Below are positions 35,436-48,957 of a stretch of 64,000 bases of DNA, in pieces. The translations under genes were made by a program, and so were the position numbers. This stretch comes from Omnitrophica WOR_2 bacterium RIFOXYA2_FULL_38_17. GTDB taxonomy: Bacteria > Omnitrophota > Gorgyraeia > Zapsychrales > Zapsychraceae. The first letter of the stretch is position 1, and each line of letters begins with the position of its first letter. The stretch is from the NCBI GenBank assembly GCA_001805965.1, contig MHHG01000057.1:13514-77513 (forward strand), given 5' to 3'. The notes under the pieces are model-generated. The model was not told the origin of the DNA. It did no database searches and was given only the letters and a program-made list of their open reading frames with translations.

Positions 35436-37967
35436 CTATTGTTTTGGGAGCAAATTATCTGTATATATCTCGCTTATTCCATAAGAACCCATAAATTGCT
35501 CTGCTTCAATTTCAGTATTTACCGTATGAACATATGTTGGAATATTCATTTCGGCTAATAGCTTAGGTAAGTCCGTTTTAGCTAAGTTCGGGGGCATCGT
35601 TACTGCAAAGGGTCCTTTAAATTCATTTACCCATTTCAATATATCATTTTTTGTACCTTTATATCTGTAAAGCGTCCAGATCACTCTGTTATATCCAAGC
35701 TTCTTGACAACAGAATAATTTTCAGGCTCATAGATCTGAGGAATAACCCTGTTTTCATAATCCTGCATTCTCTCTGATATTAGTTTTAAAGCTTGAATAT
35801 TATCGCCTTTAACATCAGTAATTAAAGTTGCAGATAAATTATTTTCAAGCCATTGTACCAGATCATCAAATGAAACACTCTTAAGATCAGAACTATCATC
35901 AAGCACCTCATTAAATTCTTTTAGTGAAGGCGGCATTTTATTCCCAACTATTTTTGCTTTTTGATAATATCCCTCAAAATCATGTACGCATACCAAATGA
36001 TTATCACTTGTAAATGAAAAATCGATTTCAAAGTACAAAAATCCATCTTTAAAATTTCTATCAATAGCTTTTAAACTATTCGTATATGTTCTATCATCTA
36101 TTGCCCCTCCAGCATGGGCCACACGTTGCACTTTAAAATTAGAGCCTAACTGTAATGCATCGCGTATCTCATGCGCACTTAATTTAATATTTTCCCTTAA
36201 TTTCCATTTTTTTAAATAATTTCCTCTTGTGCCTAATACGGCACAACAGCCTCTATCACCTAAATTATGGTCAATCTTATTCATTTTTGCACAATCATCT
36301 ATTAATAAAAAGTGACTTGTTATCTTGTCGTCTTCTAAAATATCAAACAAAGTTTTATTCCTTGGAAATCTGTTAAAGTTAAATATTAAGGTTGTTTTAA
36401 AGGCATCATCAAACCTAAGCAAAGCAGGGATGTTGAACTTCCTTTCATCTATCTGCACAACTCGCTCATGCAAATCTATTTTTATAAATTCATCGATCCT
36501 TGGAAATTCCCAAAAGGCTAAAGCATCCTTTCTCCATCCTTTTAAATTTTTATGGATCAGTTTTACTTCGTCATTTTTTACCTTTGTGTCCAGCAAATCC
36601 CTTCCCAATCCCACATCTCCTTTAAATCCTATAAAAGGAAGTACTGTCGGGCTAATATCCAAAGTTGACCCCAATCTATTTATCTCCTTTGAGTTCTTTA
36701 ACTGAGGATCAAAGATCATAAAAAGATTCCTTCTTTTCCCTAGATTCAATAGCTCATAAGCAGTATTCCTCATAGCAAGATGATCTGATTGCAAAACAAT
36801 TACTGTTTTTTCTGCATAAGGAGATATAGCAATTTTGTCAATGAATTCGGCAATCAAATATTCAGAACATGAAACCGCATCTAACATTTTGTTTGACCCG
36901 CTTTCAGATATTTTATTCTCACATCTTTGCGAAACATGTCCTACAGGTGCATGTGTACCCAATGTTAATATAAATATCCCGAAAGGCTTGTCTTTTTTTG
37001 ACTGATCAATGAAACTATCATATGCAATATCTAATAAAGAATCATCAAACAAACCCCAATTATTCAAATATGCCTTGTCGGGTAACCTGTCAAGCAATTC
37101 AGCATTACCATATACATCATCAAAATTATGCGTTTTAAAATATTTATCCTTGCCTGCAAACCTGATATCCGCTCCCCCGAAGAAAGAAAGACGGTATCCC
37201 TGATCATGGAGCAAATCTCCCAAGCAGACAGCCTTTTGTAAAAAAGTATCCATTCCTGACATTGCATTACCGTGAGATGTCGATATTAATGGCACCCCGC
37301 ATTGACTTGCGACTATGCCACCCATTGTATTGTGAGCATACTCTACCTGGACAATATTTGAAAAATCAATTCTTTTTGTCTTAATTTGTTTTATATATCT
37401 ATTTAAACCAGGAAAAATTGCCGGATCAAAATAGGTTCTTTCCATGCTTTCTGCATATATAACGATTAAATTCTTTTTCAGCTTGTCATTATGCTCAAGG
37501 TTAGGCTTCAAATAATGCTCACTAAAACTCTCAGAGCTTGTTTTTACAAAATATAGATTTTTTAGATCATGCACTGCAGGGTTCAATAAAATTGAAATAA
37601 ACTGGACAAAATATAGGAAGATCAATAAAGCCTTATTGCTGTTAATTGCGGTATCTTTTTTCTTTATAAAAACAATCAGCACAAATATTCCAATAGCTAT
37701 TATTGCAATAATTGAAAACCCTATGAGATTTGACAAATGTGCGAATCCTGAGCCATTAAAACCATATTTCAAATGAAATATAACAGACTCATCAATACCA
37801 TAGGAAGTAATTTCATCGGAGATAAAATAGAATAAGTTTAATAAAAGAGAGGCTACTGTTAAAAATAAAAGTATTAAAGTGTTAAATAAGCTTACTTTTC
37901 TTCTACGAAGAACAAATCCAAATATCAGAATAAAAACAAGAGATAAGTACAGATGTGGATTATTCAT
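35436..37967 (-). CDS. fusion of membrane-anchored LtaS/OpgB-like sulfatase-family phosphotransferase and C-terminal glycerophosphodiester phosphodiesterase (GDPD) domain
   Basis: N-terminal 5 TM helices, a sulfatase/alkaline-phosphatase-superfamily core, and a C-terminal GDPD signature (VAHAGG…NSLKAI…FEIDFSFTSDNHLVCVHD). Confidence 0.6.
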   Translation of the reverse strand: MNNPHLYLSLVFILIFGFVLRRRKVSLFNTLILLFLTVASLLLNLFYFISDEITSYGIDESVIFHLKYGFNGSGFAHLSNLIGFSIIAIIAIGIFVLIVFIKKKDTAINSNKALLIFLYFVQFISILLNPAVHDLKNLYFVKTSSESFSEHYLKPNLEHNDKLKKNLIVIYAESMERTYFDPAIFPGLNRYIKQIKTKRIDFSNIVQVEYAHNTMGGIVASQCGVPLISTSHGNAMSGMDTFLQKAVCLGDLLHDQGYRLSFFGGADIRFAGKDKYFKTHNFDDVYGNAELLDRLPDKAYLNNWGLFDDSLLDIAYDSFIDQSKKDKPFGIFILTLGTHAPVGHVSQRCENKISESGSNKMLDAVSCSEYLIAEFIDKIAISPYAEKTVIVLQSDHLAMRNTAYELLNLGKRRNLFMIFDPQLKNSKEINRLGSTLDISPTVLPFIGFKGDVGLGRDLLDTKVKNDEVKLIHKNLKGWRKDALAFWEFPRIDEFIKIDLHERVVQIDERKFNIPALLRFDDAFKTTLIFNFNRFPRNKTLFDILEDDKITSHFLLIDDCAKMNKIDHNLGDRGCCAVLGTRGNYLKKWKLRENIKLSAHEIRDALQLGSNFKVQRVAHAGGAIDDRTYTNSLKAIDRNFKDGFLYFEIDFSFTSDNHLVCVHDFEGYYQKAKIVGNKMPPSLKEFNEVLDDSSDLKSVSFDDLVQWLENNLSATLITDVKGDNIQALKLISERMQDYENRVIPQIYEPENYSVVKKLGYNRVIWTLYRYKGTKNDILKWVNEFKGPFAVTMPPNLAKTDLPKLLAEMNIPTYVHTVNTEIEAEQFMGSYGISEIYTDNLLPKQ

Positions 37968-38001
37968 TTAAAGTTCATTATCTTTTATAACATTGTATTT
38001 T

Positions 38002-38424
38002 TTAGTCATTTTTGTGCTCTTCAACGAACTTCATACATGCCTTTGCTATATCCTTGATGGATATCATTCCTATCAATTTATTATCATCAACTACAGGAAC
38101 ATGCCGGAAATTAAGCCCGCTCATCATATGATATACATCAAAAATTGATGTGCCAGAAGTAACCGTTGAAGGATGTATTGTCATAACCTCTTTCACATGA
38201 ACCTTTTCAAGATTCAAACTTTCAGGGACAACTCGCCTTAGAACATCCCTTTCAGTAAAAATACCGACGATTTCATCCTTATCATTACAAACAGCCATCG
38301 CGCCAATATTCCTGACAAACAGTTCTTTTATAGCCTCCATAATAGTGACCTCTTGCGATATCTTCCCCACCCTTTTTGCCATTATATCGCCAGCTGTTAA
38401 TGCTGATATTTTTTTTGCTAACAT
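38002..38424 (-). CDS. CBS domain-pair protein
   Basis: Two CBS motifs in 140 aa. Confidence 0.8.
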   Translation of the reverse strand: MLAKKISALTAGDIMAKRVGKISQEVTIMEAIKELFVRNIGAMAVCNDKDEIVGIFTERDVLRRVVPESLNLEKVHVKEVMTIHPSTVTSGTSIFDVYHMMSGLNFRHVPVVDDNKLIGMISIKDIAKACMKFVEEHKND

Positions 38425-38585
38425 TATCCCCCCCCTTGATTACATATTACCAAATTTTATTTCAACATAACAAACAATGCTAAATATTTCAGTTTTCTTT
38501 TCTTTGATTTACAATACATCGTAGCTATCACATAAATCAAGGATAATTAGCTTTTTTGTGCCGCAAGGAAACAAAATAATAAATA

Positions 38586-38627
38586 AAAAGGCCGCTCATT
38601 TAAATGACCGGCCTATTTATTCCGTTG
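38586..38627 (-). terminator. intrinsic terminator (GGCCGGUCAUUUAAAUGAGCGGCC + U-run) in the riboswitch-1 leader, just upstream of the CBS gene
   Basis: An 11-bp stem with one mismatch, then UUUUUAUUUAUUAUUUU on the minus strand. Confidence 0.6.
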
Positions 38628-38744
38628 GGGTCTTGCGGTGGAATTCCAGGGACTAACACAAACTTAATAAATAATTTTGCGCTAGTCCCTGGGGCAATAA
38701 CAGTCCGTCGCTCGGGGGCGGTTGGCAACGGTGCTATTGATCAT

Positions 38745-38795
38745 AATAAAAAAGACCTGTCCCTTATAAAAAGAGACAAGTCTTTTTCAGTAAAA
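38745..38795 (-). terminator. intrinsic terminator immediately 3' of riboswitch-1 aptamer (expression platform)
   Basis: GACUUGUCUC…GGGACAGGUC hairpin followed by UUUUUUAUUAU on the minus strand. An A-run on the other side makes it look bidirectional. Confidence 0.55.
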
Positions 38796-38814
38796 ATATC
38801 TACGCCTTTTTTTC

Positions 38815-38900
38815 GATTCGGCAACTGGCTATCCATTTCTTTGGACCCTTTAGCTTTGCGTCCCTGGGTTGCCCCAGGTTTGCCATTTTCGTCGTTATGC
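38815..38900 (-). promoter_or_regulatory. GEMM-I (c-di-GMP class I) riboswitch aptamer, copy 1
   Basis: Minus-strand RNA reads …AAAAUGGCAAACC-UGGGGCAACCCAGG-GACGCAAAGCUAAAGGGUCC…GGAUAGCCAGUUGCCGAA. P1 is GGCAAAC/GUUGCC. P2 is capped by a GCAA (GNRA) tetraloop. The GGGACGCAAAGC core is conserved. Confidence 0.7.
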
Positions 38901-38968
38901 CCCCTACTAGTTAAGTATATAACACATATAGTAAACTAGCAAATAAGGAGCGTTTATTCCTTTATAAA

Positions 38969-39868
38969 CTAACCACAATTGTAACAACTCTGCTCAAATT
39001 TCTCCCCGTTTGCCAGATACACTGTTAATTCCATGAATTCGCATGTTTTACTGTCTGAACATGCTGAACAATCAGTCTTAAGCCCAATATCAGCGCACCT
39101 TGCGCCTCCGGTGCTTGATTCACATCTATAGCATATACCATCAACATCCGGCAGCTCTTCAACCACACAATTGCCATCACATTCTGTACAATCTGAAAAG
39201 TTTAACAGATCAAAAACAGTGCAATCCTCTTGTCCTGCACTAACCAGCTCTTCAATGTCTTCATTAATCATTTTATAATTATCTGATATTTCGATAACAT
39301 CATCACCTTCATAATCCAGCTGATCTTCAGAATAATTCTCAGGCTCAATTTTTGAAATCAGCACAATTGTTTTGTCTTTTGCCTTGTCCTCATTAACATT
39401 TGTTTCAAATGTTAGTTCTTCGGGAATAGATTCAACATCTTTTTCATCAGATGTCTCTGTTACTGCCGGTATTTCTACACAAGAATAGCAGTCCTGACCA
39501 CCAGTCATTTTTTCAATTGCCAAACATTGAGCACCAGGAATAGATGTGCAGAATTCACACATATCCTTTGTAACAAGCCCTATATCCCCGCAAGTTTGGA
39601 TGATTTGCACCTGCACAACTTCTGCAACAGGTTCATTAACTGCTTTCTTAGTAATCTTTGCTTCTACTTGTTCAGGCTTAACTGGCACTTCTTCTTTAAA
39701 CAAATTTTCATATGTCTTTTCCGGCACCATAACATTAGAAACCTCCAGCTGTTTCTTTTGTTCATATTCTTCTATGGTTTTATTTGTCACAACCTTTTTC
39801 GAGCAGCCTACAATCGCTGCAGAGAATATGACCATTCCAACAACTGCAAAATATTTTATTTTATACAT
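38969..39868 (-). CDS. Cys-rich lipoprotein (secreted, many CxxC/CxC pairs)
   Basis: Lipobox AIVGCS. About 24 Cys, clustered in the C-terminal half (CYRCESSTGGARCADIGLKTDCSACSDSKTCEF…CYNCG). Confidence 0.5.
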   Translation of the reverse strand: MYKIKYFAVVGMVIFSAAIVGCSKKVVTNKTIEEYEQKKQLEVSNVMVPEKTYENLFKEEVPVKPEQVEAKITKKAVNEPVAEVVQVQIIQTCGDIGLVTKDMCEFCTSIPGAQCLAIEKMTGGQDCYSCVEIPAVTETSDEKDVESIPEELTFETNVNEDKAKDKTIVLISKIEPENYSEDQLDYEGDDVIEISDNYKMINEDIEELVSAGQEDCTVFDLLNFSDCTECDGNCVVEELPDVDGICYRCESSTGGARCADIGLKTDCSACSDSKTCEFMELTVYLANGEKFEQSCYNCG

Positions 39869-39880
39869 ATAGCACCTCTC

Positions 39881-41959
39881 TTACTTTTTGCTCAATTGAT
39901 CTATATTTTTATCAGCAATCATCTTTGGTACGCTGATAGTTATCGAGATATTGCCATCACTTAAGACTTCTTCAGACTCCACTTTAATAATACTTTCAAC
40001 TCCGTCTATATCAACATTATACAGCTCTGAAACTTCCTGCTGAATGCGTTTTAAGGCCATATTCTGCGTCATTTTTCTTTTTATCTCTTCAGTTGAACTC
40101 TTCAAATTTACGACCGGGAACACCCTGGTCATAAAAACTCTTTCTTCCTTTTCTTTCACATTTGGGTCAAAAGAGAACACTTTAATGCTATCTGCCATAT
40201 AATCCGAAACATAAATTTTACCATCATTACTTTCTATTGATGTTAGATTAGGAAAATAGCTTGGGCCCTTTCCGGCAGAACCAAACTCCATGACATATTT
40301 TCCTTTATCGTCGAGGATGTAAATCTTATTTGTTCCTTTATCTGCAATGTAAAGATATCCATTCTCATCTAGAGTAAAGTCAACCGGCTCTTTAAACTCC
40401 ACCTCATCGAGAACGCTGCCTATTACCCTAAGGACCTTTCCATCTTTATCGAATACCTGTATACGCCTATTCTTGTAATCAAGCACATACAATTGGTCCT
40501 TATCATCAAATTCAATATCTTTTGGCAAAAAGAAAGTACCTGGCTCTGCGCCTGATTCTCCGATAGTTTCTGTTAATCTGCCAAACGAGTTAAGATATAT
40601 TCCTTCCTCACTAAAAACCTGTATTCGATGATTCTTTGTGTCCGATACATAAATATAGCCGTCCTTGCTAACTGCAACACCTTGAGGGCTATTAAACTCA
40701 CTCGTATTATTCCCTTTTTTGCCAAAACTATATTGAGATGTCCCATCTTCATTTAAAAACTGTATACGGTTATTTCCTGTGTCGGCAATGATCATTTTCC
40801 CGTCATTATAAACATATATAGTCTTCGGGCCGTTCATGCCCAAAACATTCTCGTCTGCTTTTGCTATCAGTGATTTATTTTCTCCTTTTAGCAATATTTT
40901 CCCGTTAGTGTCAGAAAGCGAATACAAGCCTTTCTTTTTCACAAATCTTATATCAACTATATTTTCTCCAGCATATATGGATGAGTCATAATCCAAAACA
41001 GGTGTAATATATTGAACAGGATGCAGTGATGTTTTGTTGCTACCGCTAACCTGCATCATCTGCACTCTCTTATTTCTAGCATCCGCTATCAAGATCTTAT
41101 CCTTAGATGCGGCGGTGATATTTTCAGGCAGATCAAATTGGCCACGGCCCTCTCCGCGGGACCCGAATGAGAACAAAGCCTTTCCATCCTGATCTAGCTT
41201 AACGATCTTATTTTTATTGCTCTCTATAATGTAAATATCCCCTCGCTCATCAACATCCAATGCAACAGCATAATATAGAGGATTATATCCATTCTCGACA
41301 TTCGTTATATCTATGGCATCATCTGAACCTTGCGGATATTTCACGATCCTTCCACTTTCATTAAAAAGCAAGTACATGCTTTGTTCTTTATCAAAAACTA
41401 TGTCCTTAGGCGTTTCTTCAATTTGCTTTTCACTTAAAAACGCTCCATGAGGGCTAAACTTCAATATTTTATTAGTTTTATCATCAACGACATATATATA
41501 TCCAAGCATATCAATTGCAACATTTGACGGAGACTTAAATTGCCCGGGAACAGAACCTTCATTTCCAAGCTCATACAGAACTTCTCCGCTGGGCCTGAAA
41601 ACCTGCACTCTGTTATTACCTGTATCAGCTACTACAACATCACCCTCCCTTGTTAATGCTATTGTTTTAGGCTTATACATTTGGCCCAACTGAGACCCTT
41701 TTTCTCCGAAAGCCACTTTAAGAACTCCTTCACTGGTAAAAACAGAGATCTTCGCAGTACTTTCATCTAATATATAAACATCCCCTGAAGATGAAACTGC
41801 AATATCAACCGGCTTCTCTATTCCAGATTTTAACTCTCTTATAAAGCTAACCTTTTCCTCACAATTCCCTTTAGAGCTTACAAGAACAAATGTCACTATT
41901 AGAATAGTTAAAATACCGATTTTTGAGGTTTTGATCTGATTCACATGATACCTTTTCAT
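39881..41959 (-). CDS. secreted NHL-repeat beta-propeller protein (about 12 NHL repeats)
   Basis: Signal peptide. Repeated NHL signatures (GQFKSPSNVAID…YVVD; NNRVQVF; NKRVQMM; NNRIQFL; NHRIQVF; NRRIQVF). Confidence 0.8.
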   Translation of the reverse strand: MKRYHVNQIKTSKIGILTILIVTFVLVSSKGNCEEKVSFIRELKSGIEKPVDIAVSSSGDVYILDESTAKISVFTSEGVLKVAFGEKGSQLGQMYKPKTIALTREGDVVVADTGNNRVQVFRPSGEVLYELGNEGSVPGQFKSPSNVAIDMLGYIYVVDDKTNKILKFSPHGAFLSEKQIEETPKDIVFDKEQSMYLLFNESGRIVKYPQGSDDAIDITNVENGYNPLYYAVALDVDERGDIYIIESNKNKIVKLDQDGKALFSFGSRGEGRGQFDLPENITAASKDKILIADARNKRVQMMQVSGSNKTSLHPVQYITPVLDYDSSIYAGENIVDIRFVKKKGLYSLSDTNGKILLKGENKSLIAKADENVLGMNGPKTIYVYNDGKMIIADTGNNRIQFLNEDGTSQYSFGKKGNNTSEFNSPQGVAVSKDGYIYVSDTKNHRIQVFSEEGIYLNSFGRLTETIGESGAEPGTFFLPKDIEFDDKDQLYVLDYKNRRIQVFDKDGKVLRVIGSVLDEVEFKEPVDFTLDENGYLYIADKGTNKIYILDDKGKYVMEFGSAGKGPSYFPNLTSIESNDGKIYVSDYMADSIKVFSFDPNVKEKEERVFMTRVFPVVNLKSSTEEIKRKMTQNMALKRIQQEVSELYNVDIDGVESIIKVESEEVLSDGNISITISVPKMIADKNIDQLSKK

Positions 41960-41996
41960 TTTTTTCTCCTCTCTACAATTAATCCCATAAAAAAAG

Positions 41997-42035
41997 GCCT
42001 ACCCTTTACAAAAAAGGATAGGCCTTTCTTTTTTA
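41997..42035 (-). terminator. intrinsic terminator between riboswitch-2 aptamer and NHL gene (expression platform)
   Basis: GGCCUAUCC…GGGUAGGCC hairpin followed by UUUUUUUAU, then the RBS GAGGAG and the ATG of the NHL gene. Confidence 0.6.
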
Positions 42036-42059
42036 TTATATGAACTACACCATTATTTC

Positions 42060-42145
42060 TTTTCGGCAACTGGCTATCCATGTCTCAGGACCCTTTAGCT
42101 TTGCGTCCCCGGGTTACCCCGAGTTTGCCTTTATCGTTTATGCCC
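42060..42145 (-). promoter_or_regulatory. GEMM-I (c-di-GMP class I) riboswitch aptamer, copy 2
   Basis: Minus-strand RNA reads …CGAUAAAGGCAAAC-UCGGGGUAACCCGGG-GACGCAAAGCUAAAGGGUCCUGAGACAUGGAUAGCCAGUUGCCGAA. P2 has a GUAA tetraloop. Near-identical to copy 1 in the conserved cores. Confidence 0.75.
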
Positions 42146-42347
42146 CCACTTGCACAAACAAAAAAAAGAGGCTAATTCTTTTTTAAGAATCCGCCCCTCT
42201 TTTTCTCAAGTATAGAACGTAAAAAACAAAAATGCAAATTTCTTTCAAAAATATTCTTAAAACACATAACGTTCATTGAACTTTAAGATAAAGCCCCTTA
42301 TATAAATAAGGGGCCTTATCTTGGATCATGATTGTTATACAAAATTC

Positions 42348-42752
42348 CTACTTAGAAACCCAGCTGCCATCTTCTAATTGTATTTTTTCTCCAGCCTCAG
42401 CATTTTCTCTCTGTGTTTGAGCAAAAACCTTTTCTATAGTTCCCATAGCCTCAGTTAGTCCGTTTTGCACAGCAATGGTCCTATAAATAACCTTCCTATC
42501 AATATTCTCGGCAGTTACTATACTTTTAACTTCTTCTGTTGCCGATAAAGCTTCAACATATCCCTTATTATTCTCTCCTATTTTCCCCTCGCTCTTAAGT
42601 GAGCTAAGAGCATCATAACGGTCGCGCCTGCCTTCTAAGGCAGATTGAACTTCTGGCGTCATTTCTTTTATGCTGTATTTGCTTTGAGCTAGTGCCTGCC
42701 CGACAGACAAGGTGATCAAACATGCTAACACTAAAATAATAATTTTCTTCAT
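42348..42752 (-). CDS. ydbL: YdbL-like periplasmic protein (DUF1318)
   Basis: Signal peptide. Conserved DUF1318-like core (RRDRYDALSSLKSEGKIGENNKGYVE). Third gene of a ydbH-ynbE-ydbL-ordered trio. Confidence 0.55.
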   Translation of the reverse strand: MKKIIILVLACLITLSVGQALAQSKYSIKEMTPEVQSALEGRRDRYDALSSLKSEGKIGENNKGYVEALSATEEVKSIVTAENIDRKVIYRTIAVQNGLTEAMGTIEKVFAQTQRENAEAGEKIQLEDGSWVSK

Positions 42753-42765
42753 CTATATATCCTCC

Positions 42766-42987
42766 TTATTTTTTAACAGGTAAAGCTTCTTTAGGCTTCT
42801 TTCCACTAACATAATCTTCAATGTCATTAGCCGTATTTTGCAAACCCTTAACATCAACAGTTATATGCGCATTGATCGTAATTGGCCTGTTTGGATCACC
42901 TACGGCCTTAACTGTACAACCGGCAAAACAAATAGCCAGCAATACCCACAAGATTCTTTGTTTATAAATATAATACATACGCTTCAT
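42766..42987 (-). CDS. ynbE: YnbE-like small lipoprotein (DUF1375)
   Basis: 73 aa with lipobox FAGC. RPITINAHITVDVKG resembles E. coli YnbE EPITINMNVKIEHEI. Confidence 0.6.
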   Translation of the reverse strand: MKRMYYIYKQRILWVLLAICFAGCTVKAVGDPNRPITINAHITVDVKGLQNTANDIEDYVSGKKPKEALPVKK

Positions 42988-42993
42988 CCTTTC

Positions 42994-43992
42994 TTAAGAC
43001 TTTTTAAAAGAATATTTTAATAAATTTCTTATCCCTCCTTCTATATTAAAATCAACGGTTACATTAACATCCAAATTCATTTCTTTACTCTGCAATAAGA
43101 TATTAGAACTAAGGCTTTGATCATTTTCATTATAAACACGCACTTGGCCTTTATCCACCGCAAACAGCTCCCCTCTTTTTATCGCATTAATCAGCTTGTC
43201 AGTCTTCGCTTGATCCGGTATGTAAGCCATTAATGCTGCCAATAAAACTGCATTCAGCTCAGAACCCTGATTCATGTTAAAATCACACTCAATATTCTCG
43301 ATGCCACCCGCCAGACCATTTAAAAATATATTTCCAGATACTTTTCCTTTTACATTTGAAAGAACAGGAGGATAAATATGTTCAAGCATTGCAGAATTTA
43401 AACCTTCAAGCTGTAAATTTATTTTAAAATCCGGCTTATTCAAATAAACATCTGCATTGCCTTTGACAAAACCATCACAAGTTTCAAGATTTATATCAGA
43501 AAGCTCTATTTTTTCTTGGCTTATATTAATCTTAGACGTTGTGTCCTTTGCTATTACCCCTTGTACATCTATTCTCGATACCTTTAAACTTCCTTTAAAA
43601 TTATAACCTTGTTCTTGTTCTAATGTAATATCTGCATCTTCAATGTTTGACCCTTCCGATTTTAAATCCATGCCATTTAAATCGATTATTGAACCAAAGG
43701 TCTTTTCAGAGAACAATTTATACAAATTCACAACCCTAAATTCGTCTATATCAATACCATACAAAACATTATCGGAAACAAGATCCATTTCTATTTTCTT
43801 GATTGTCATCATGCCCAAAAAGCTGAATTTCTGTTGTGATACTTTGAAACTCTTTAAACTGAACCCAGAATCTGGTTGATTCGCGATAAAAGATATCATT
43901 GCAACAGTTGCTTGAGGCTTATTCAGGCCCCAATAAACTGCACCTGCAAACAATAGCAATATTAATAAAAGCCAAATAAATAATTTTTTCAT
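42994..43992 (-). CDS. short YdbH/AsmA-like periplasmic protein
   Basis: N-terminal TM anchor followed by a beta-rich soluble region. Called from its position upstream of the ynbE/ydbL homologs, as in Enterobacteria. 332 aa against about 880 aa for E. coli YdbH. Confidence 0.4.
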   Translation of the reverse strand: MKKLFIWLLLILLLFAGAVYWGLNKPQATVAMISFIANQPDSGFSLKSFKVSQQKFSFLGMMTIKKIEMDLVSDNVLYGIDIDEFRVVNLYKLFSEKTFGSIIDLNGMDLKSEGSNIEDADITLEQEQGYNFKGSLKVSRIDVQGVIAKDTTSKINISQEKIELSDINLETCDGFVKGNADVYLNKPDFKINLQLEGLNSAMLEHIYPPVLSNVKGKVSGNIFLNGLAGGIENIECDFNMNQGSELNAVLLAALMAYIPDQAKTDKLINAIKRGELFAVDKGQVRVYNENDQSLSSNILLQSKEMNLDVNVTVDFNIEGGIRNLLKYSFKKS

Positions 43993-44046
43993 TATGTGAA
44001 ATTTATATCATTTCAACAAAATTTAATAGCAAGCCTGTCTTAAATT

Positions 44047-44703
44047 CTAAGTTTCTTCAGTATCTATCATCCTCTTCGCTCCAAAAACCAACGTAAGCAA
44101 AAAACAAACAATTCCAAGAATATAAAAGAAACCACTATAACGTTCAATCAATAATCCTTTTTCTGTCTTATAAAAATCAGCTTTTTCCTTTTCATACTGT
44201 TCTAGCTCTTTCATCAGCGGCATTCTTTGCTTCCATAGTTCTTTTCCTTCAACATCATCCACAAATCCACCCCGTTCTGCTGCAACCTTCACTTTTTCCT
44301 CCTCTAGAGAAAGCCTTTCTTTTTCTATGGCCCTGCTCTCAGCCAAATAATCTGCATACTTGCCAACTGGACGCGCATTCCCCCAAAACCCTTTTCTTAT
44401 CACCTCATTAGGACCTATTGATTCATAAAGGCGATCATTATCCTCACTCCTTATCTTAAGGTCTTCCTCTTTCTTTTCAATTGAAAGATACCAAGCTCGG
44501 CCATCTTTATCCTTTCCCAATAAAATATCGTATAACTTCCTGTCGATTTTCTCAATTTTACCTTGTAAAACACCTATATTGCTAAATATGGGTGGCGCTA
44601 AGACTTTTTCTGACAAAAAGAATGATATTGGGCACATCAGCATTATTATAATTTGAAACAAACAACCGATCTTAATTCTTTTTTTATTTTGTTTTTTATT
44701 CAT
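44047..44703 (-). CDS. bitopic membrane protein (N- and C-terminal TM, central coiled coil, PVGKY motif); paralog of 45445..46095
   Basis: Same architecture and shared motifs (RPVGKYADY vs APVGKYKKV; KELWKQRMP vs KALWAQRLP) with the 216-aa protein. Confidence 0.4.
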   Translation of the reverse strand: MNKKQNKKRIKIGCLFQIIIMLMCPISFFLSEKVLAPPIFSNIGVLQGKIEKIDRKLYDILLGKDKDGRAWYLSIEKKEEDLKIRSEDNDRLYESIGPNEVIRKGFWGNARPVGKYADYLAESRAIEKERLSLEEEKVKVAAERGGFVDDVEGKELWKQRMPLMKELEQYEKEKADFYKTEKGLLIERYSGFFYILGIVCFLLTLVFGAKRMIDTEET

Positions 44704-44762
44704 AATTAAATCCAGGTATATAGCCAGTTTTGGCTAATTAAAGAACTAGTTCTTACATAATA

Positions 44763-45350
44763 TTATAAATTACAAAAAGGGCAGCGTGTTCGATATTGTT
44801 CATAGTTCAATCCGCATGAACCACAAGCCTTCATTTCTTCGATCTCTTTTTTTTGACTGCCAAATGATTTTTTACCGTATGCTCCGGGATACGCCCTTTG
44901 AACTTCTACCATACAATCCGGGCACATACCATAACCGCCGGATGGGTCAGTTAACGGTAACCTGACATAACATCTGTCACAAAACATCTTTGCGCATTTA
45001 GGACAAAAATAAAAGTCATTGCCGCCCATAAGCACCAAAGATTCACTAGTTGTAGATTTATTGCATGATTCACAACTTGCAGCCATTATCATCTCAGGAG
45101 TAACTCTTAGAACAGATTTTCTAGCATCATATATTATCTCTACATCATGGCAATATGGGCTGTTCAAATAACCATTAACTTCCTCTTCCATATGGCAAGT
45201 GCCAAAATTACTATAATCCCTAGCCGTTGATGAACTCTTATATCTCACAATAACTACATAGCCATCCCTCTTAGCCATCTCATTAGCGATCTCAGGATCC
45301 GTTTTTCCAGGATATTTCTCTCTTAGGTACTCTATGCCGATAGAGCTCAT
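44763..45350 (-). CDS. cytoplasmic multi-zinc-ribbon protein
   Basis: At least three CxxC…CxxC pairs (CPKCAKMFCDRC; CPDC; CGSCG…CPFC). Confidence 0.45.
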   Translation of the reverse strand: MSSIGIEYLREKYPGKTDPEIANEMAKRDGYVVIVRYKSSSTARDYSNFGTCHMEEEVNGYLNSPYCHDVEIIYDARKSVLRVTPEMIMAASCESCNKSTTSESLVLMGGNDFYFCPKCAKMFCDRCYVRLPLTDPSGGYGMCPDCMVEVQRAYPGAYGKKSFGSQKKEIEEMKACGSCGLNYEQYRTRCPFCNL

Positions 45351-45444
45351 AACAATCCCCTTTCAGCTAAACTTTGACACAAATAAAATACTTTCAAGAT
45401 TTGTTTCTTCAATTTAATATCTTTGGTTTATTTTTCAATAATGA

Positions 45445-46095
45445 TCAGTCCGTTATACCAGCAAAACCGGTCATAGCACCTAAAATACCTAACACTCCTA
45501 AGATAATAAAAAAGCCACTAATAAAATTATTTAATCTTCCCTTTGGGGATTTATTATATTCCTCTATTCGTCCCTCATATTCATCAATATCCTTCACAAA
45601 AGGTAGTCTTTGAGCCCAAAGAGCTTTAACTTCTTCATTGTCAACAAGCGGCCCTCTTTCTTTAACAATGCGATTCTTTTCACTTTGCCATTTAATACGA
45701 TCTTTGGCTATTTGCTCCCTTAATTTAACCACTTTCTTATATTTTCCTACGGGTGCCAATGAACCAGAACCTAATCCTTTTTTAATGATCTCCCCTTCAG
45801 GAATTGAATCGTAAAGAATATCTGCTTGCTGTGTCTTCCAATTCAGATCAAAATCCTCTTTTTTTATCGCTGCATATAGGTCCGCCTTCTCAATATCAAC
45901 TCTCTCAAGAACTTCATATAATTTTTCATATATTTCTGAAATTTTAGAAATTTGAGGGCTAATGTTTCCAAATGAAGGACGCTGAAACTTAGGAAAGATA
46001 TTAAATGATATAATAACTGTAACAATAGAGATTATAATGACTAAACATCCAAACTTTTTATTTTTTTGTCTTTTGTTTTTAATTATTGTTCCCAA
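45445..46095 (-). CDS. bitopic membrane protein, paralog of 44047..44703; first gene downstream of riboswitch-like element 3
   Basis: N-terminal TM, coiled coil, PVGKY motif, C-terminal TM. RBS AAGGAG. Confidence 0.4.
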   Translation of the reverse strand: MGTIIKNKRQKNKKFGCLVIIISIVTVIISFNIFPKFQRPSFGNISPQISKISEIYEKLYEVLERVDIEKADLYAAIKKEDFDLNWKTQQADILYDSIPEGEIIKKGLGSGSLAPVGKYKKVVKLREQIAKDRIKWQSEKNRIVKERGPLVDNEEVKALWAQRLPFVKDIDEYEGRIEEYNKSPKGRLNNFISGFFIILGVLGILGAMTGFAGITD

Positions 46096-46246
46096 AGCAT
46101 TCTCCTTTTATACATAATAATTTCAAAAGCTATAACCCCTTCACTGGTCATTAACAATTGAAATTGAAACTTCAATCAGTATATTCTATATATTCACAAG
46201 TATATTAGCAATCGCTATTTATGTACTTTGGTCAAGATCAAATGGC

Positions 46247-46286
46247 AAAAAAAATACCCCTAGGTCCCTAGAGGTTATTTTTTTTA
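46247..46286 (-). terminator. intrinsic (bidirectional-looking) terminator between element 3 and the 216-aa gene
   Basis: A8, hairpin ACCCCUAGG/CCUAGAGGU, then T8. On the minus strand the hairpin is followed by U8. Confidence 0.5.
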
Positions 46287-46290
46287 AATT

Positions 46291-46472
46291 AAGCCGATAA
46301 AGATGGGATCTGTGTCCCACCGCACTTCGGCAACTCAGCCACCATATCGCCCGTCAACCGCGCTCATTATCTTTATTTGCCCCATAACTTCAGTGGGCCT
46401 TCCCGGTCTTAAACGACTTCAGGTCTGTAGTTTTGTGCCCTCGGGTTTCCCGGAGTTTACCTTTATCGGCTT
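46291..46472 (-). promoter_or_regulatory. divergent GEMM-like riboswitch element, copy 3 (expanded P3, altered core)
   Basis: Enclosed by a 12-bp helix AAGCCGAUAAAG/CUUUAUCGGCUU. It contains CGAUAAAGGUAAAC, a GAAA-capped hairpin, GGGCACAAAAC in place of GGGACGCAAAGC, and the 3' GCUGAGUUGCCGAA. Confidence 0.4.
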
Positions 46473-46656
46473 AGTTCAAATATAACATATAAAACCTCGT
46501 CTTACAAATGAACAACACAAATTTTTTATTAATCTGACCTTTTTTCATGCAAAATTTGAGCCTAAACCACGTCGATAATTGAAATTCTCCTATAAAATTA
46601 TTAAAAATTGATTTAGAATGATAATAAAGAATAATACTTTATAGGAGAATATTAAT

Positions 46657-47856
46657 ATGAGAAGCATTGAGACCTTAGAGCAATTTTATGAACTAATGCA
46701 CGAGACAAAATCAACCAGAAGAGTATTATCCTGCCTTCATTTTAGGAATGAACCTTATTCAGATGCCCATATTGCACCTCTTAAGGAAGCATTAATGTAT
46801 TTAAATAGGATTCCGGAAGCAAATGGTCAAAAATGCCTTAAAATTAATGATAAAAAAACCATCCATCTTGACCTTGCATATGAGATCGGGGAGCTAAAGA
46901 AGGATATTTTTTTTCTTGAAAATAACGAGCCTGATTTCTTTAAAATGCTTTCTAACCTTCATGAAAACTTTAACAAAGAAGTATCAGAAGGCGTTAACAA
47001 ATTAAAAGATATCCATTTCAAGGTATTTATTACAGATCGCGATGGGACTGTTAACAATTATTGCGGACGGTATGCCTCTTCTATCCAGTCCGCATATAAT
47101 GCAGTTTTCCTATCGCGCTTTGCACAATGCTGTGCTGATAATTCAATAATCCTTACATCTGCTCCTCTTGATAACATCGGGCTTGTGGATCTAAGCGTAT
47201 CCCCAAAGAATGCTTTTGTCTTTGCAGGATCAAAAGGCCGTGAATACTTCAATAAAGAAGGCAGAAGGTGCCAATTCCCTATTGCCCAAGAAAAGCAAAA
47301 TATCCTCAATATACTCAATGAAAGATTGGGCAAGCTTGTAAAAGAACCAAAATACCTGCAATTTTTCTTAATAGGCTCAGGACTACAATATAAATTTGGA
47401 CAGACAACCATAACAAGGCAGGATATTACCAAGACAATTCCTGAAGATGAATCCTTAGCCTTTAAAGAAACTATCGAAAACATTATTAAAGAGATCGACC
47501 CTGAAAGTAAATATTTTAGAATTGAAGATACCGGAAAAGACCTTGAACTTATATTGACCATTCAAAGCAGCAATGATTCTAAAGATCTCAAGGACTTTGA
47601 TAAAGGCGATGGGGTCCTTTTCCTTAATAACGATTTAAAATTAGGTATGGAAGCCGGCCCCAATCTTATATGCGGAGACACAAGCTCGGACATACCAATG
47701 ATATCATCTGCAATTGATAAATCCGATGATGTCTATTCGATTTTTGTAACTAAGGATGATGCTTTAAAAGAAAAGGTTAAAAACACCTGCAGGAATTCAA
47801 TAATAGTTTCTGAACCCGATATCTTAGTAACTATACTCAATAATTTAGCGCAATAA
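46657..47856 (+). CDS. HAD-superfamily phosphatase (trehalose-6-phosphate-phosphatase-like) with N-terminal extension
   Basis: HAD motif I FITDRDGTVNNY and motif IV ICGDTSSDIPM. Confidence 0.5.
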   Translation: MRSIETLEQFYELMHETKSTRRVLSCLHFRNEPYSDAHIAPLKEALMYLNRIPEANGQKCLKINDKKTIHLDLAYEIGELKKDIFFLENNEPDFFKMLSNLHENFNKEVSEGVNKLKDIHFKVFITDRDGTVNNYCGRYASSIQSAYNAVFLSRFAQCCADNSIILTSAPLDNIGLVDLSVSPKNAFVFAGSKGREYFNKEGRRCQFPIAQEKQNILNILNERLGKLVKEPKYLQFFLIGSGLQYKFGQTTITRQDITKTIPEDESLAFKETIENIIKEIDPESKYFRIEDTGKDLELILTIQSSNDSKDLKDFDKGDGVLFLNNDLKLGMEAGPNLICGDTSSDIPMISSAIDKSDDVYSIFVTKDDALKEKVKNTCRNSIIVSEPDILVTILNNLAQ

Positions 47857-47858
47857 AA

Positions 47859-47890
47859 AAGGGGACAGAGCTTTGGCTCTGTCCCCGATA
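47859..47890. terminator. bidirectional intrinsic terminator between the convergent HAD and PilZ genes
   Basis: GGGGACAGAGCUUUGGCUCUGUCCCC, a perfect 11-bp stem, flanked by an A6 and a U-run on the minus-strand side. Confidence 0.65.
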
Positions 47891-47900
47891 AAACAATATA

Positions 47901-48287
47901 TTAGCTTTCCCCTTCTTTAGCCAACCACATTTCAATCTCTTTATAGAAAGCCGCTCTTTCCTCTTCTCCCTCTATCTCTATCTTCACTGCAGTTTCAAAG
48001 AAATTTGCCAATTTCCTGGAACTCTCAGACCTAACAACTACCCCAACATAACCACTTTCCATATGCATTAAAGGATTACTGACTTTCATCGTCAGGGTTG
48101 CACCCACCGTATACTGTTTTTGAGAATTAAAACATATGCCTGTAACACTGATGTTAGTGGAAGTAGCAACTTCCCATCCATCAACCTCAGGCACTGGGTC
48201 AATCTGCTTAAACCGTATAAGGTGCGGCTTAGTGATCCTTTTTCCTACCCTTTTATGATCGTATTCAGCCATATTCTTTACTCCCAT
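47901..48287 (-). CDS. PilZ-domain protein (putative c-di-GMP receptor)
   Basis: RxxxR (KRVGKR) and N-x-S-x-x-G (NISVTG) motifs about 25 residues apart in a 128-aa protein. Confidence 0.6.
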   Translation of the reverse strand: MGVKNMAEYDHKRVGKRITKPHLIRFKQIDPVPEVDGWEVATSTNISVTGICFNSQKQYTVGATLTMKVSNPLMHMESGYVGVVVRSESSRKLANFFETAVKIEIEGEEERAAFYKEIEMWLAKEGES

Positions 48288-48342
48288 TTTATAATTTTAA
48301 AAACAACATTTATATTATAACTGAAAAATCAAAATTTACGAA

Positions 48343-48957
48343 TTAAAAACTGCTAATATTCTCAAAGAAAGACCTTATTAAACGTGGATTCTTTATCCCT
48401 GGTGCAGTTTCAAGTCCGCTAGAAACATCAACTGCAAACGGATTAACCTGGCCAACCGCTTCTTTTACATTATCAGGATTCAATCCTCCCGACAATATGA
48501 TCGGCTTATCAAATTTTTCTTTGCTAATGAGGTCCCAATTAAACTTTTCTCCAGTCCCCCCATAAGCATCCTTTTGATACGCATCAAACAAATACGCATC
48601 AACTTTATACTTCTTTACCTCTTCTGGAAGGAACACGGCTCCCACCCTAAAAGCTTTAATTATCTTTAAATCCTTAAACCGCTTACAATAAACCGTTGTT
48701 TCATCTCCGTGAAACTGAACGGTATTGATCCTCGTGAATCTGCACACATCAATGACCGCACGCTCTTTTTGATCCACAAAAACACCAACAGGGGTAATGA
48801 AAGGCGGCAATGCCTCAATTATTTTTCTGGCCTTGCTTGGCGAAACATACCTGGGGCTTTTCTTGTAAAAAATAAAACCTAATGCATATGCCCCATAATA
48901 AACTGCTTTTAAAGCATCTTCCGTATTTGTAATTCCACAAACCTTAACTTTTACCAT
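48343..48957 (-). CDS. trpF: phosphoribosylanthranilate isomerase
   Basis: The VKVCGIT start and TIM-barrel PRAI motifs. Overlaps trpC by 14 nt. Confidence 0.85.
   Translation of the reverse strand: MVKVKVCGITNTEDALKAVYYGAYALGFIFYKKSPRYVSPSKARKIIEALPPFITPVGVFVDQKERAVIDVCRFTRINTVQFHGDETTVYCKRFKDLKIIKAFRVGAVFLPEEVKKYKVDAYLFDAYQKDAYGGTGEKFNWDLISKEKFDKPIILSGGLNPDNVKEAVGQVNPFAVDVSSGLETAPGIKNPRLIRSFFENISSF

Follow-up and report, generated by a model that had tools for sequence, protein, structure and literature searches.

A likely c-di-GMP-I riboswitch in an Omnitrophota genome and its environmental subfamily with a helix closing the aptamer

Background

Riboswitch aptamers of the c-di-GMP-I class (GEMM-I, Rfam family RF01051) recognize cyclic di-GMP (c-di-GMP), and their archetype is Vc2 from Vibrio cholerae. 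This paper concerns one such element from Omnitrophica WOR_2 bacterium RIFOXYA2_FULL_38_17 (Omnitrophota), the third of three GEMM-like copies in a 64,000-nucleotide stretch of contig MHHG01000057.1 (positions 13,514 to 77,513), which we call the window and to which all coordinates refer. Aptamer positions follow the Vc2 scheme, which agrees with the published list of conserved GEMM-I positions: G20, C22, A23, A25, G32, A35, G42, C44, G45, A47-A49, G83 and C92 (PMC3764141). G20 and C92 each pair with a different guanine of the ligand; A47 acts by intercalation, with a contribution from A48 (PMC3764141, PMC5888326). The C22-G45 pair is normally highly conserved and takes an A-minor contact from A49 that supports stacking on the ligand (PMC3764141). 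Specificity for 3',3'-cyclic GMP-AMP (cGAMP) or cyclic di-AMP (c-di-AMP) is set at positions 20 and 92, G20A leading to cGAMP and G20A/C92U to c-di-AMP recognition (PMC7288161).

Several described systems come close to the element studied here. The Bc1 c-di-GMP-I riboswitch of the Bacillus cereus group is described as carrying two typical rho-independent terminators; the first (T1) is unfolded by the ligand, whereas the second (T2) stays folded and can hide the response. Zur is a protein co-factor in that system (PMC11218506). The pilM riboswitch of Geobacter, a GEMM-Ib RNA with A20, responds to 3',3'-cGAMP as an ON switch, and its terminator takes up the 3' (A) strand including the equivalent of C92 (PMC9262584). 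The merRNA of Bdellovibrio bacteriovorus, 445 nt long, lineage-restricted and massively expressed, is an orphan GEMM-I RNA proposed as a sponge (PMC3627812). The c-di-GMP-I-GGC family (RF03167) belongs to the same clan and has G47 in its consensus (GCGAA, against GCAAA in RF01051).

We present evidence that the third copy is, in all likelihood, a genuine c-di-GMP-I riboswitch of a large environmental subfamily present in Omnitrophota, Planctomycetota and other phyla. It would be transcribed from its own promoter and work with ON logic, a long helix that closes the whole aptamer acting as the stem of terminator T1. The initial annotation of the window had described a divergent element that was either decaying or altered in specificity. 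This false lead can be removed, as the apparent changes in ligand contacts are compensatory swaps in a standard c-di-GMP sensor.

Results

Element and its parts

A search of Rfam with cmscan returned a full-length RF01051 match at 46471..46326 of the minus strand, covering model positions 1-87 with 57.3 bits (threshold 35) and E = 1.4e-8. Read 5' to 3' from about position 46475, the unit is AACUAAGCCGAUAAAGGUAAAC-UCCGGGAAACCCGAG-GGCACAAAAC...GAGUUGCCGAAG-UGCGGUGGGACACAGAUCCCAUCUUUAUCGGCUUAAUUUAAAAAAAAUAACCUCUAGGGACCUAGGGGUAUUUUUUUU. All motifs quoted in the initial annotation are present, the strand being minus: the 5' CGAUAAAGGUAAAC at 46468..46455, the 3' GAGUUGCCGAA at 46336..46326 and the GAAA-capped hairpin at 46455..46440 (loop 46449..46446). 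Its general description, a GEMM-I-type element with enlarged P3 and an enclosing helix, is borne out by the Rfam match together with a 64-nt insert in P3 and a helix of 15 bp. The parts of the unit and the gene behind it are as follows.

46479..46507, minus strand: sigma-70-type promoter of the riboswitch unit (promoter scan), with TTGTAA, a 17-nt spacer and TG-extended TATATT; predicted start a few nucleotides before the 5' arm
46326..46471, minus strand: c-di-GMP-I (GEMM-I) aptamer (Rfam RF01051 match)
46459..46473, minus strand: 5' arm (X) of the closing helix, made up of the P1 5' strand, J1/2, G20 (46461), G21 and U22
46435..46460, minus strand: P2 hairpin, with the G21-C46 and U22-A45 pairs, a 6-bp stem with one C.C mismatch and the GAAA tetraloop 46449..46446 (cmscan alignment)
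46434..46432, minus strand: A47-A49, directly 3' of P2
46332..46432, minus strand: P3, which contains the bulged G83 position and a tetraloop-receptor-like CCUGAAG/UAUGG whose extra G is 46420 (cmscan alignment)
46350..46413, minus strand: 64-nt distal P3 extension with P3b stem, ACC/GGU stem, GGGAAG loop, GCCC...GGGC hairpin and AAGA segment (cmscan insert)
46302..46321, minus strand: linker hairpin H4 (GGUGGGA-CACAGA-UCCCAUC), between aptamer and 3' arm
46290..46304, minus strand: 3' arm (X') of the closing helix, AUCUUUAUCGGCUUA
46278..46289, minus strand: site of the T1 U-tract in relatives, degenerate here (AUUUAAAAAAAA, 3 U in the first 9 nt)
46247..46275, minus strand: T2, the second terminator, of canonical intrinsic type, with its 8-bp hairpin at 46275..46256 and U8 at 46254..46247 (terminator scan)
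46211..46183, minus strand: promoter-like site of the 216-aa gene, between T2 and the gene (promoter scan)
45445..46095, minus strand: downstream 216-aa gene with TTG start and AAGGAGA Shine-Dalgarno sequence, without Pfam family

The position of the element at the 5' end of its transcript and an expression platform that competes with the aptamer, both looked for in a c-di-GMP-I riboswitch, are thus represented by the promoter, the pocket-sequestering closing helix and the terminators. An identical copy of the element is present in a second assembly of this organism.

Aptamer core and ligand pocket

The core of the third copy reads G20 G21 U22 A23-25 ... G32AAA35 ... G42 G43 C44 A45 C46 A47 A48 A49 A50. 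It had been regarded as divergent, with changed nucleotides at the ligand-contacting junction. It is neither shortened nor rearranged: in the alignment to the Rfam model, AGGGCACAAAAC matches ggGACGCAAAgC position for position, with equal length and three substitutions, and the impression of a changed core is therefore explained by a register error. Compensatory swaps account for C22-G45 to U22-A45 and for G50-C to A50-U, both pairs being preserved, and A43G is the sole unpaired change in the core. The bases that contact the ligand are all kept in the cmscan alignment, namely G20 (46461), A47 and A48 (46434/46433) and C92 (46330). C44 (C46437) is kept as well, and the bulged GG in GGUGGCUG aligns to AG of the model, which at sequence level preserves the bulged G83 position of the C44-G83 cross-helix pair. 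Binding of c-di-GMP by the third copy is predicted from this kept pocket.

The C22-G45 identity typical of RF01051 is replaced by U22-A45 with the pair retained, and this, as the distribution described below indicates, is natural variation within the c-di-GMP-I family and no ground for exclusion. With G at position 20 the third copy lacks the A20 that characterizes GEMM-Ib. It scores 51 bits with the RF03167 model, whose threshold is 59, and position 47 is A in all three copies of the window, in contrast to the G47 of that family; the window's other two copies and some relatives do score best with RF03167. Compared with Vc2, the third copy has the same three-helix junction, GAAA-capped P2, receptor-like internal loop in P3, G20, A47, A48 and C92, and C44 with bulged G83. 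It differs from Vc2 in the U22-A45 second junction pair, in G43, in a conserved distal P3 extension of about 60 nt and in P1, which is only about 4 bp long and has a 2-nt bulge.

Relatives and distribution

Genomes, one per species, were scanned with the pattern AAAGGTAAAC-N12-22-GRCACAAARC. The U22-A45 core occurs at no fewer than 120 genome loci in Omnitrophota, Nitrospirota, Acidobacteriota, Planctomycetota, Bacillota, Chloroflexota and others, within aptamers that are otherwise canonical, and position 43 among the 122 natural matches listed is G in 66 and A in 56. Compact U22-A45 examples (n=50) align as textbook GEMM-I aptamers with richly covarying P2. RNAalifold applied to a plain MAFFT alignment of compact aptamers recovered P2 alone and placed P3 out of register, and Rfam on the relatives was used instead. 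Several of the genome matches, including two from Omnitrophota and one from Planctomycetales, share with the window the exact 5' end, the receptor region, the 3' end and the long P3.

Metagenomes were scanned with GCCGATAAAGGTAAAC-N12-20-GRCACAAA, a pattern that includes the 5' strand of the closing helix but not its 3' arm, and 78 loci with the window's 5' end were found. Aptamers of 134-165 nt are present in about 50 of about 70 non-redundant metagenomic elements, the window measuring 142 nt on the same scale. All 18 relatives tested gave full-length Rfam matches (59.7-84 bits), the long ones spanning 134-169 nt. For the nearest relative, identity along the entire unit is 73%. In the 49 aligned relatives the GAAA loop is invariant, as is C92 although it lies outside the search pattern, and the P2 stem is perfect in 45.

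Dozens of relatives conserve the core variant together with the long P3 and the closing helix, and the proposed choice between a decaying element and a specificity variant does not hold. What had been taken as decay is, judging from these alignments, a set of conserved subfamily traits. Of the 69 relatives whose upstream sequence is long enough, essentially all have a promoter of the form CTTG...TGnTATAtT with 17-nt spacing ahead of the invariant GCCG; by a crude measure based on the last hexamer, this promoter ends 8 nt before GCCG in 31 of them.

Closing helix

A 12-bp helix between AAGCCGAUAAAG (46472..46461) and CUUUAUCGGCUU (46302..46291) had been noted before; it is real and extends to 15 bp, 46473..46459 pairing with 46304..46290, one G.U pair included. 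The minimum-free-energy fold of the unit (-82.1 kcal/mol, z = -4.8 against shuffles) contains this helix. The helix buries the P1 5' strand, J1/2, G20, G21 and U22. Because G20 and the P1 5' strand are no longer available, it excludes the ligand-binding fold. A fold constrained to the aptamer is 23.7 kcal/mol less stable than the one with the closing helix, a sum that leaves out ligand and tertiary energy.

The pairing is conserved across the subfamily. A complementary 3' arm is present in 49 of 49 aligned relatives, with ten core pairs essentially always complementary (about 100%), and two flanking pairs switch between AU and GC, in six sequences each. Over the same set the pairing reaches 82% in register, compared with 28-52% when the partner strand is slid. 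A 3' arm that pairs over 9-16 bp is found in nearly all of the roughly 70 metagenomic relatives, most often 21-36 nt beyond the aptamer. A Nitrospiraceae aptamer with a different 5' sequence is provided with a matching arm (14 bp in a gap-free scan, 17 bp when extended by eye), and in relatives H4 is replaced at the same place by a hairpin of different sequence. The helix had been called unusual for its class. This is correct for the class at large, where helices of 13-14 bp occur in few of about 100 U22-A45 genome aptamers sampled, several of them being chance matches of A/U-rich sequence, but it is a hallmark of the present subfamily. Since the helix is rare in that sample and near-constant in the relatives, it marks the subfamily and not the whole class.

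Terminators and proposed switch

A stable helix followed immediately by a U-tract constitutes an intrinsic terminator. The first 9 nt after the 3' arm contain on average 5.67 U in the relatives and 2.91 in background windows, and at least 6 U are found in 62.5% of relatives as opposed to 6.5% of background windows. Because a U-tract directly follows the 3' arm in most relatives, the closing helix is read as an intrinsic-terminator stem, and it is most likely the stem of a ligand-controlled terminator, T1. A T2-type hairpin with a U-run is present within 140 nt in 45 of 64 relatives under a strict rule. In the third copy T2 is predicted whether or not the fold is constrained to the aptamer, and the A8 in front of its hairpin (46285..46278) can lengthen the stem. 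T2 had been proposed to act in both directions. The hairpin is indeed flanked by A8 and U8, but the scan called it on the minus strand only, and its G.U pairs, read from the sequence, would turn into C.A mismatches on the plus strand.

We propose the following model. Some 25 nt after the aptamer, the nascent RNA would present a 3' arm able to pair with the initial 12-15 nt of the transcript, that is with the P1 5' strand, J1/2 and G20. In the absence of ligand the two arms would pair, enclose the whole aptamer and form the T1 stem, which with its U-tract would stop transcription. If c-di-GMP binds during transcription, the 5' arm would be held in the pocket, T1 would fail to form and polymerase would read on. 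The element would thus be an ON switch under kinetic control, and H4, the variable hairpin ahead of the 3' arm, may give time for binding. The ligand-independent T2 would come next in most members including the third copy. As the T1 tract of the third copy is weak, most of its transcripts would probably end at T2 whatever the ligand state, yielding an RNA of about 225 nt, and control of the 216-aa gene would hang on read-through of T2.

Comparison with Bc1 shows a likeness in the long expression platform and in two terminators in series, with ligand response of T1 in the third copy being a prediction. T2 is clear here; T1 is derived from the family and its U-tract in the third copy is weak. 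Contrary to Bc1, with its two typical rho-independent terminators, the putative T1 stem joins the extreme 5' end to an arm further downstream in a long-range helix, and we see no evidence in the third copy of a protein co-factor like the one in Bc1. The pilM riboswitch has a homologous aptamer fold, mutually exclusive aptamer and terminator, and a ligand that prevents the terminator, the last being predicted for the third copy. It differs in A20 and its ligand cGAMP, the third copy having G20, and in the strand that is sequestered, which is the 5' (P) strand in the third copy.

No complementarity of the free 3' arm or the aptamer with the T2 stem, such as a classical antiterminator would have, was seen by eye. 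A match to the Rfam 'trpB motif' at 46244..46316 (25.6 bits, E = 0.14) lies well below the threshold of 59 and was read as resemblance to a terminator hairpin. Inspection by eye of the printed tails of three relatives (L138, L140 and L095) shows a downstream A-rich copy of the 5' arm with which the T1 U-tract and the last part of the 3' arm can pair, for example GGCUUACUUUUUUC with GAAAAAAGUAAGCC in L140; this may provide a further alternative hairpin in the ligand-bound state.

P3 extension

Expansion of P3 by about 90 nt had been reported. The expansion is real and smaller: the insert amounts to 64 nt (46413..46350) in place of 6 nt in the model, and the aptamer is 146 nt long compared with 87 nt, about 59 nt extra. 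The consensus of the extension in 31 relatives is CAGRCC-U(A/C)(A/G)-UUGUCU-AA-ACC-GGGAAG-GCCC[variable]GGGCA-N4-AAGA-[variable]-GGU-UGA-GGRCRA-UAUGG-YGGCUG. The P3b stem, which adjoins the receptor, covaries, one of its column pairs being UA in 13, UG in 12, CG in 5 and AU in 1 of these relatives, and the inner stems are conserved in sequence. According to the alignment the extension is located beyond the tetraloop receptor, at a distal site far from the pocket that presumably tolerates extra RNA without disturbing it.

A pseudoknot between the extension and the 3' arm was considered, as the window contains an 8-bp match of AUAAAGAU (46376..46369) with AUCUUUAU (46304..46297). Over 43 relatives the longest match of this kind averages 6.30, compared with 6.38 for shuffled extensions; given this lack of enrichment, the match was treated as chance.

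Discussion

The observations that weigh against a c-di-GMP-controlled leader with T1 as its switch deserve to be listed together. The third copy has only 3 U in the 9 nt after its 3' arm, and T1 may not terminate here. It also has the C.C mismatch in P2 (46452/46443) and a receptor CCUGAAG/UAUGG with one extra G (46420), where relatives have CCUAAG or CCUACG, a variant seen in the window alone among 31 aligned relatives. T2 is predicted regardless of ligand, which leaves no obvious path from ligand to expression of the 216-aa gene, and that gene has a promoter-like site of its own (46211..46183). An aptamer of about 150 nt is an unusual "loop" for a terminator, and the pilM precedent sequesters the opposite strand. 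The first downstream open reading frame (ORF) is co-directional in 44 of 57 relatives and convergent in the remaining 13. At least ten relatives (L127, L131, L139, L153, L154, L157, L159, L163, L165, L174) have, past the second terminator, a TGnTATAAT box whose end lies 7-10 nt ahead of the next gene's ATG; this suggests leaderless mRNAs with their own promoter directly behind riboswitch and tandem terminators. Finally, ligand binding and transcriptional control by members of the subfamily are predictions from sequence.

Both the convergent neighbours and the TGnTATAAT boxes favour a self-contained RNA over a classical leader. Promoter, aptamer, T1 and T2 would then form a stand-alone c-di-GMP-binding small RNA that serves as a buffer or sponge. 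Alternatively this RNA would be gated by the ligand, through a choice between isoforms ended at T1 and at T2 or through a 3' arm exposed only in the bound state. This is a serious rival as regards the biological role, although we consider it somewhat unlikely overall, and the molecular switch would be the same either way. In its favour are the conserved promoter of the unit and the strong T2 that forms in both states, the convergent next genes (trpF-trpC-trpD in L103, for example), and the separate promoters of next genes in relatives and, as a promoter-like site, in the window. A precedent exists in merRNA, which likewise places a GEMM-I aptamer in a self-contained, terminated transcript with no obligatory downstream ORF (PMC3627812); merRNA differs in its massive expression and lineage restriction, and most relatives of the third copy have a co-directional gene. 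Such a gene soon after the element in 44 of 57 relatives speaks against a stand-alone role, as do five relatives (L138, L148, L166, L168 and L170) whose second hairpin lacks a U-tract and which resemble simple ON switches. For a pure sponge, a pocket-destroying helix would also be odd.

A more far-reaching variant, which we regard as unlikely, makes the long-P3 members a distinct, undescribed GEMM-I subclass. Their extension of about 60 nt (ACC-GGGAAG-GCCC...GGGCA...AAGA...GGU) would be an accessory domain, serving as tertiary brace, as protein or second-ligand site or as timing device, and the unit would be a self-contained c-di-GMP-gated small RNA, not a leader, often placed just upstream of leaderless genes. 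Features possibly new at the level of the subfamily are the conserved P3 extension, the terminator built on the P strand at the extreme 5' end of the transcript, and the self-contained units with tandem terminators. The frequency of tandem terminators and separate downstream promoters raises the question whether many "riboswitches" of uncultured phyla are in fact self-contained c-di-GMP-responsive RNAs.

Erosion of this particular locus into a riboswitch that no longer switches appears improbable. Three lineage-specific departures from the subfamily consensus, namely the P2 mismatch, the extra receptor G and the degenerate T1 U-tract, would fit it, and so would the Rfam score, lower than that of every one of the 18 relatives tested. 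On the other side, the score is far above the Rfam threshold, and nothing is missing from the promoter, the pocket bases, the GAAA loop, the P3 extension consensus, T2 or the perfect 15-bp closing helix; functional aptamers, too, can have single mismatches and variant receptors. The third copy, as compared with its aligned relatives, is slightly eroded, in the P2 mismatch, the receptor G and the weak T1 U-tract.

Very little probability attaches to transcriptional interference, in which ligand-dependent read-through would cross and repress the promoter of the next gene, or produce antisense RNA where that gene is convergent. Promoters immediately after T2 in several relatives and the 13 convergent neighbours among 57 would suit it, and antisense-acting riboswitches are reported (PMC9943018); the strong T2 predicted in both states leaves little read-through to be expected.

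Least probable of all is a core that prefers another dinucleotide (3',3'-cGAMP, c-di-AMP or pGpG), for although the U-A pair in place of C22-G45 and the G at position 43 are second-shell changes that could shift affinity, positions 20 and 92 are unchanged as G and C and A47 and A48 are kept, so that no new ligand need be invoked, the swap preserves the pair and occurs in many phyla in otherwise canonical aptamers, G43 and A43 interchange freely, and the RF03167 score (51 against 59) and A47 lead away from that family; a specificity variant is thus without support, and nothing in the aligned core points to a new ligand.

Genomic surroundings

Conservation of the element upstream of orthologs of the 216-aa protein had been suggested as a check. 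A search of 5.8 billion sequences for this protein detected no relative but itself; the contigs carrying it, of which 24 were read, collapsed to one displayed place, where the element is exact. The genes downstream of the relatives share no common Pfam family: PilZ, CARDB and DUF4416 were matched and several proteins gave no match, while N-terminal sequences of some resemble, by eye, GH1 glycosidases and RsmE. The most frequent downstream gene of the long-P3 subfamily encodes a Cys-rich protein of about 100 aa without Pfam match (..FIRVY....D...I..HLLIYGDLSG.C..C...D.K..), which is the first ORF in L095, L131, L154, L156-L160, L163-L165, L178 and L184.

In Omnitrophota the element retains its place adjacent to the trpC-trpF 3' end, with the same orientation in L095 and a convergent one in L103. 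In the window, insertion of a PilZ-like ORF and of a trehalose-6-phosphate phosphatase gene in reversed orientation separates the element from trpC-trpF (46657-48957). The PilZ-like ORF of 128 aa, at 47901-48287, scores 17.9 bits, below the cut-off.

The window contains three c-di-GMP aptamers in 8 kb on one strand (35436-48287). The genes behind them encode a CBS protein together with an 843-aa protein, an NHL-repeat protein, and a paralogous pair of 216 and 218 aa (39% identical, no Pfam family); Omnitrophota thus place three c-di-GMP aptamers within 8 kb beside genes for cell-envelope proteins or proteins of unknown function. The other two aptamers, at 38893..38816 and 42138..42061 of the minus strand, have c-di-GMP-I-GGC as their best model (67.6 and 64.8 bits). 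This label was rejected, since both contain GCAAAG and hence A47, and it reflects competition between Rfam models; going by their sequences, copies 1 and 2 belong to the ordinary GAC type of c-di-GMP-I aptamers. Reading by eye revealed no obvious long closing helix in either. Again by eye, a hairpin preceded by an A-run and provided with a U-run lies 40-60 nt beyond each of them, and the terminator scan of the region listed neither hairpin.

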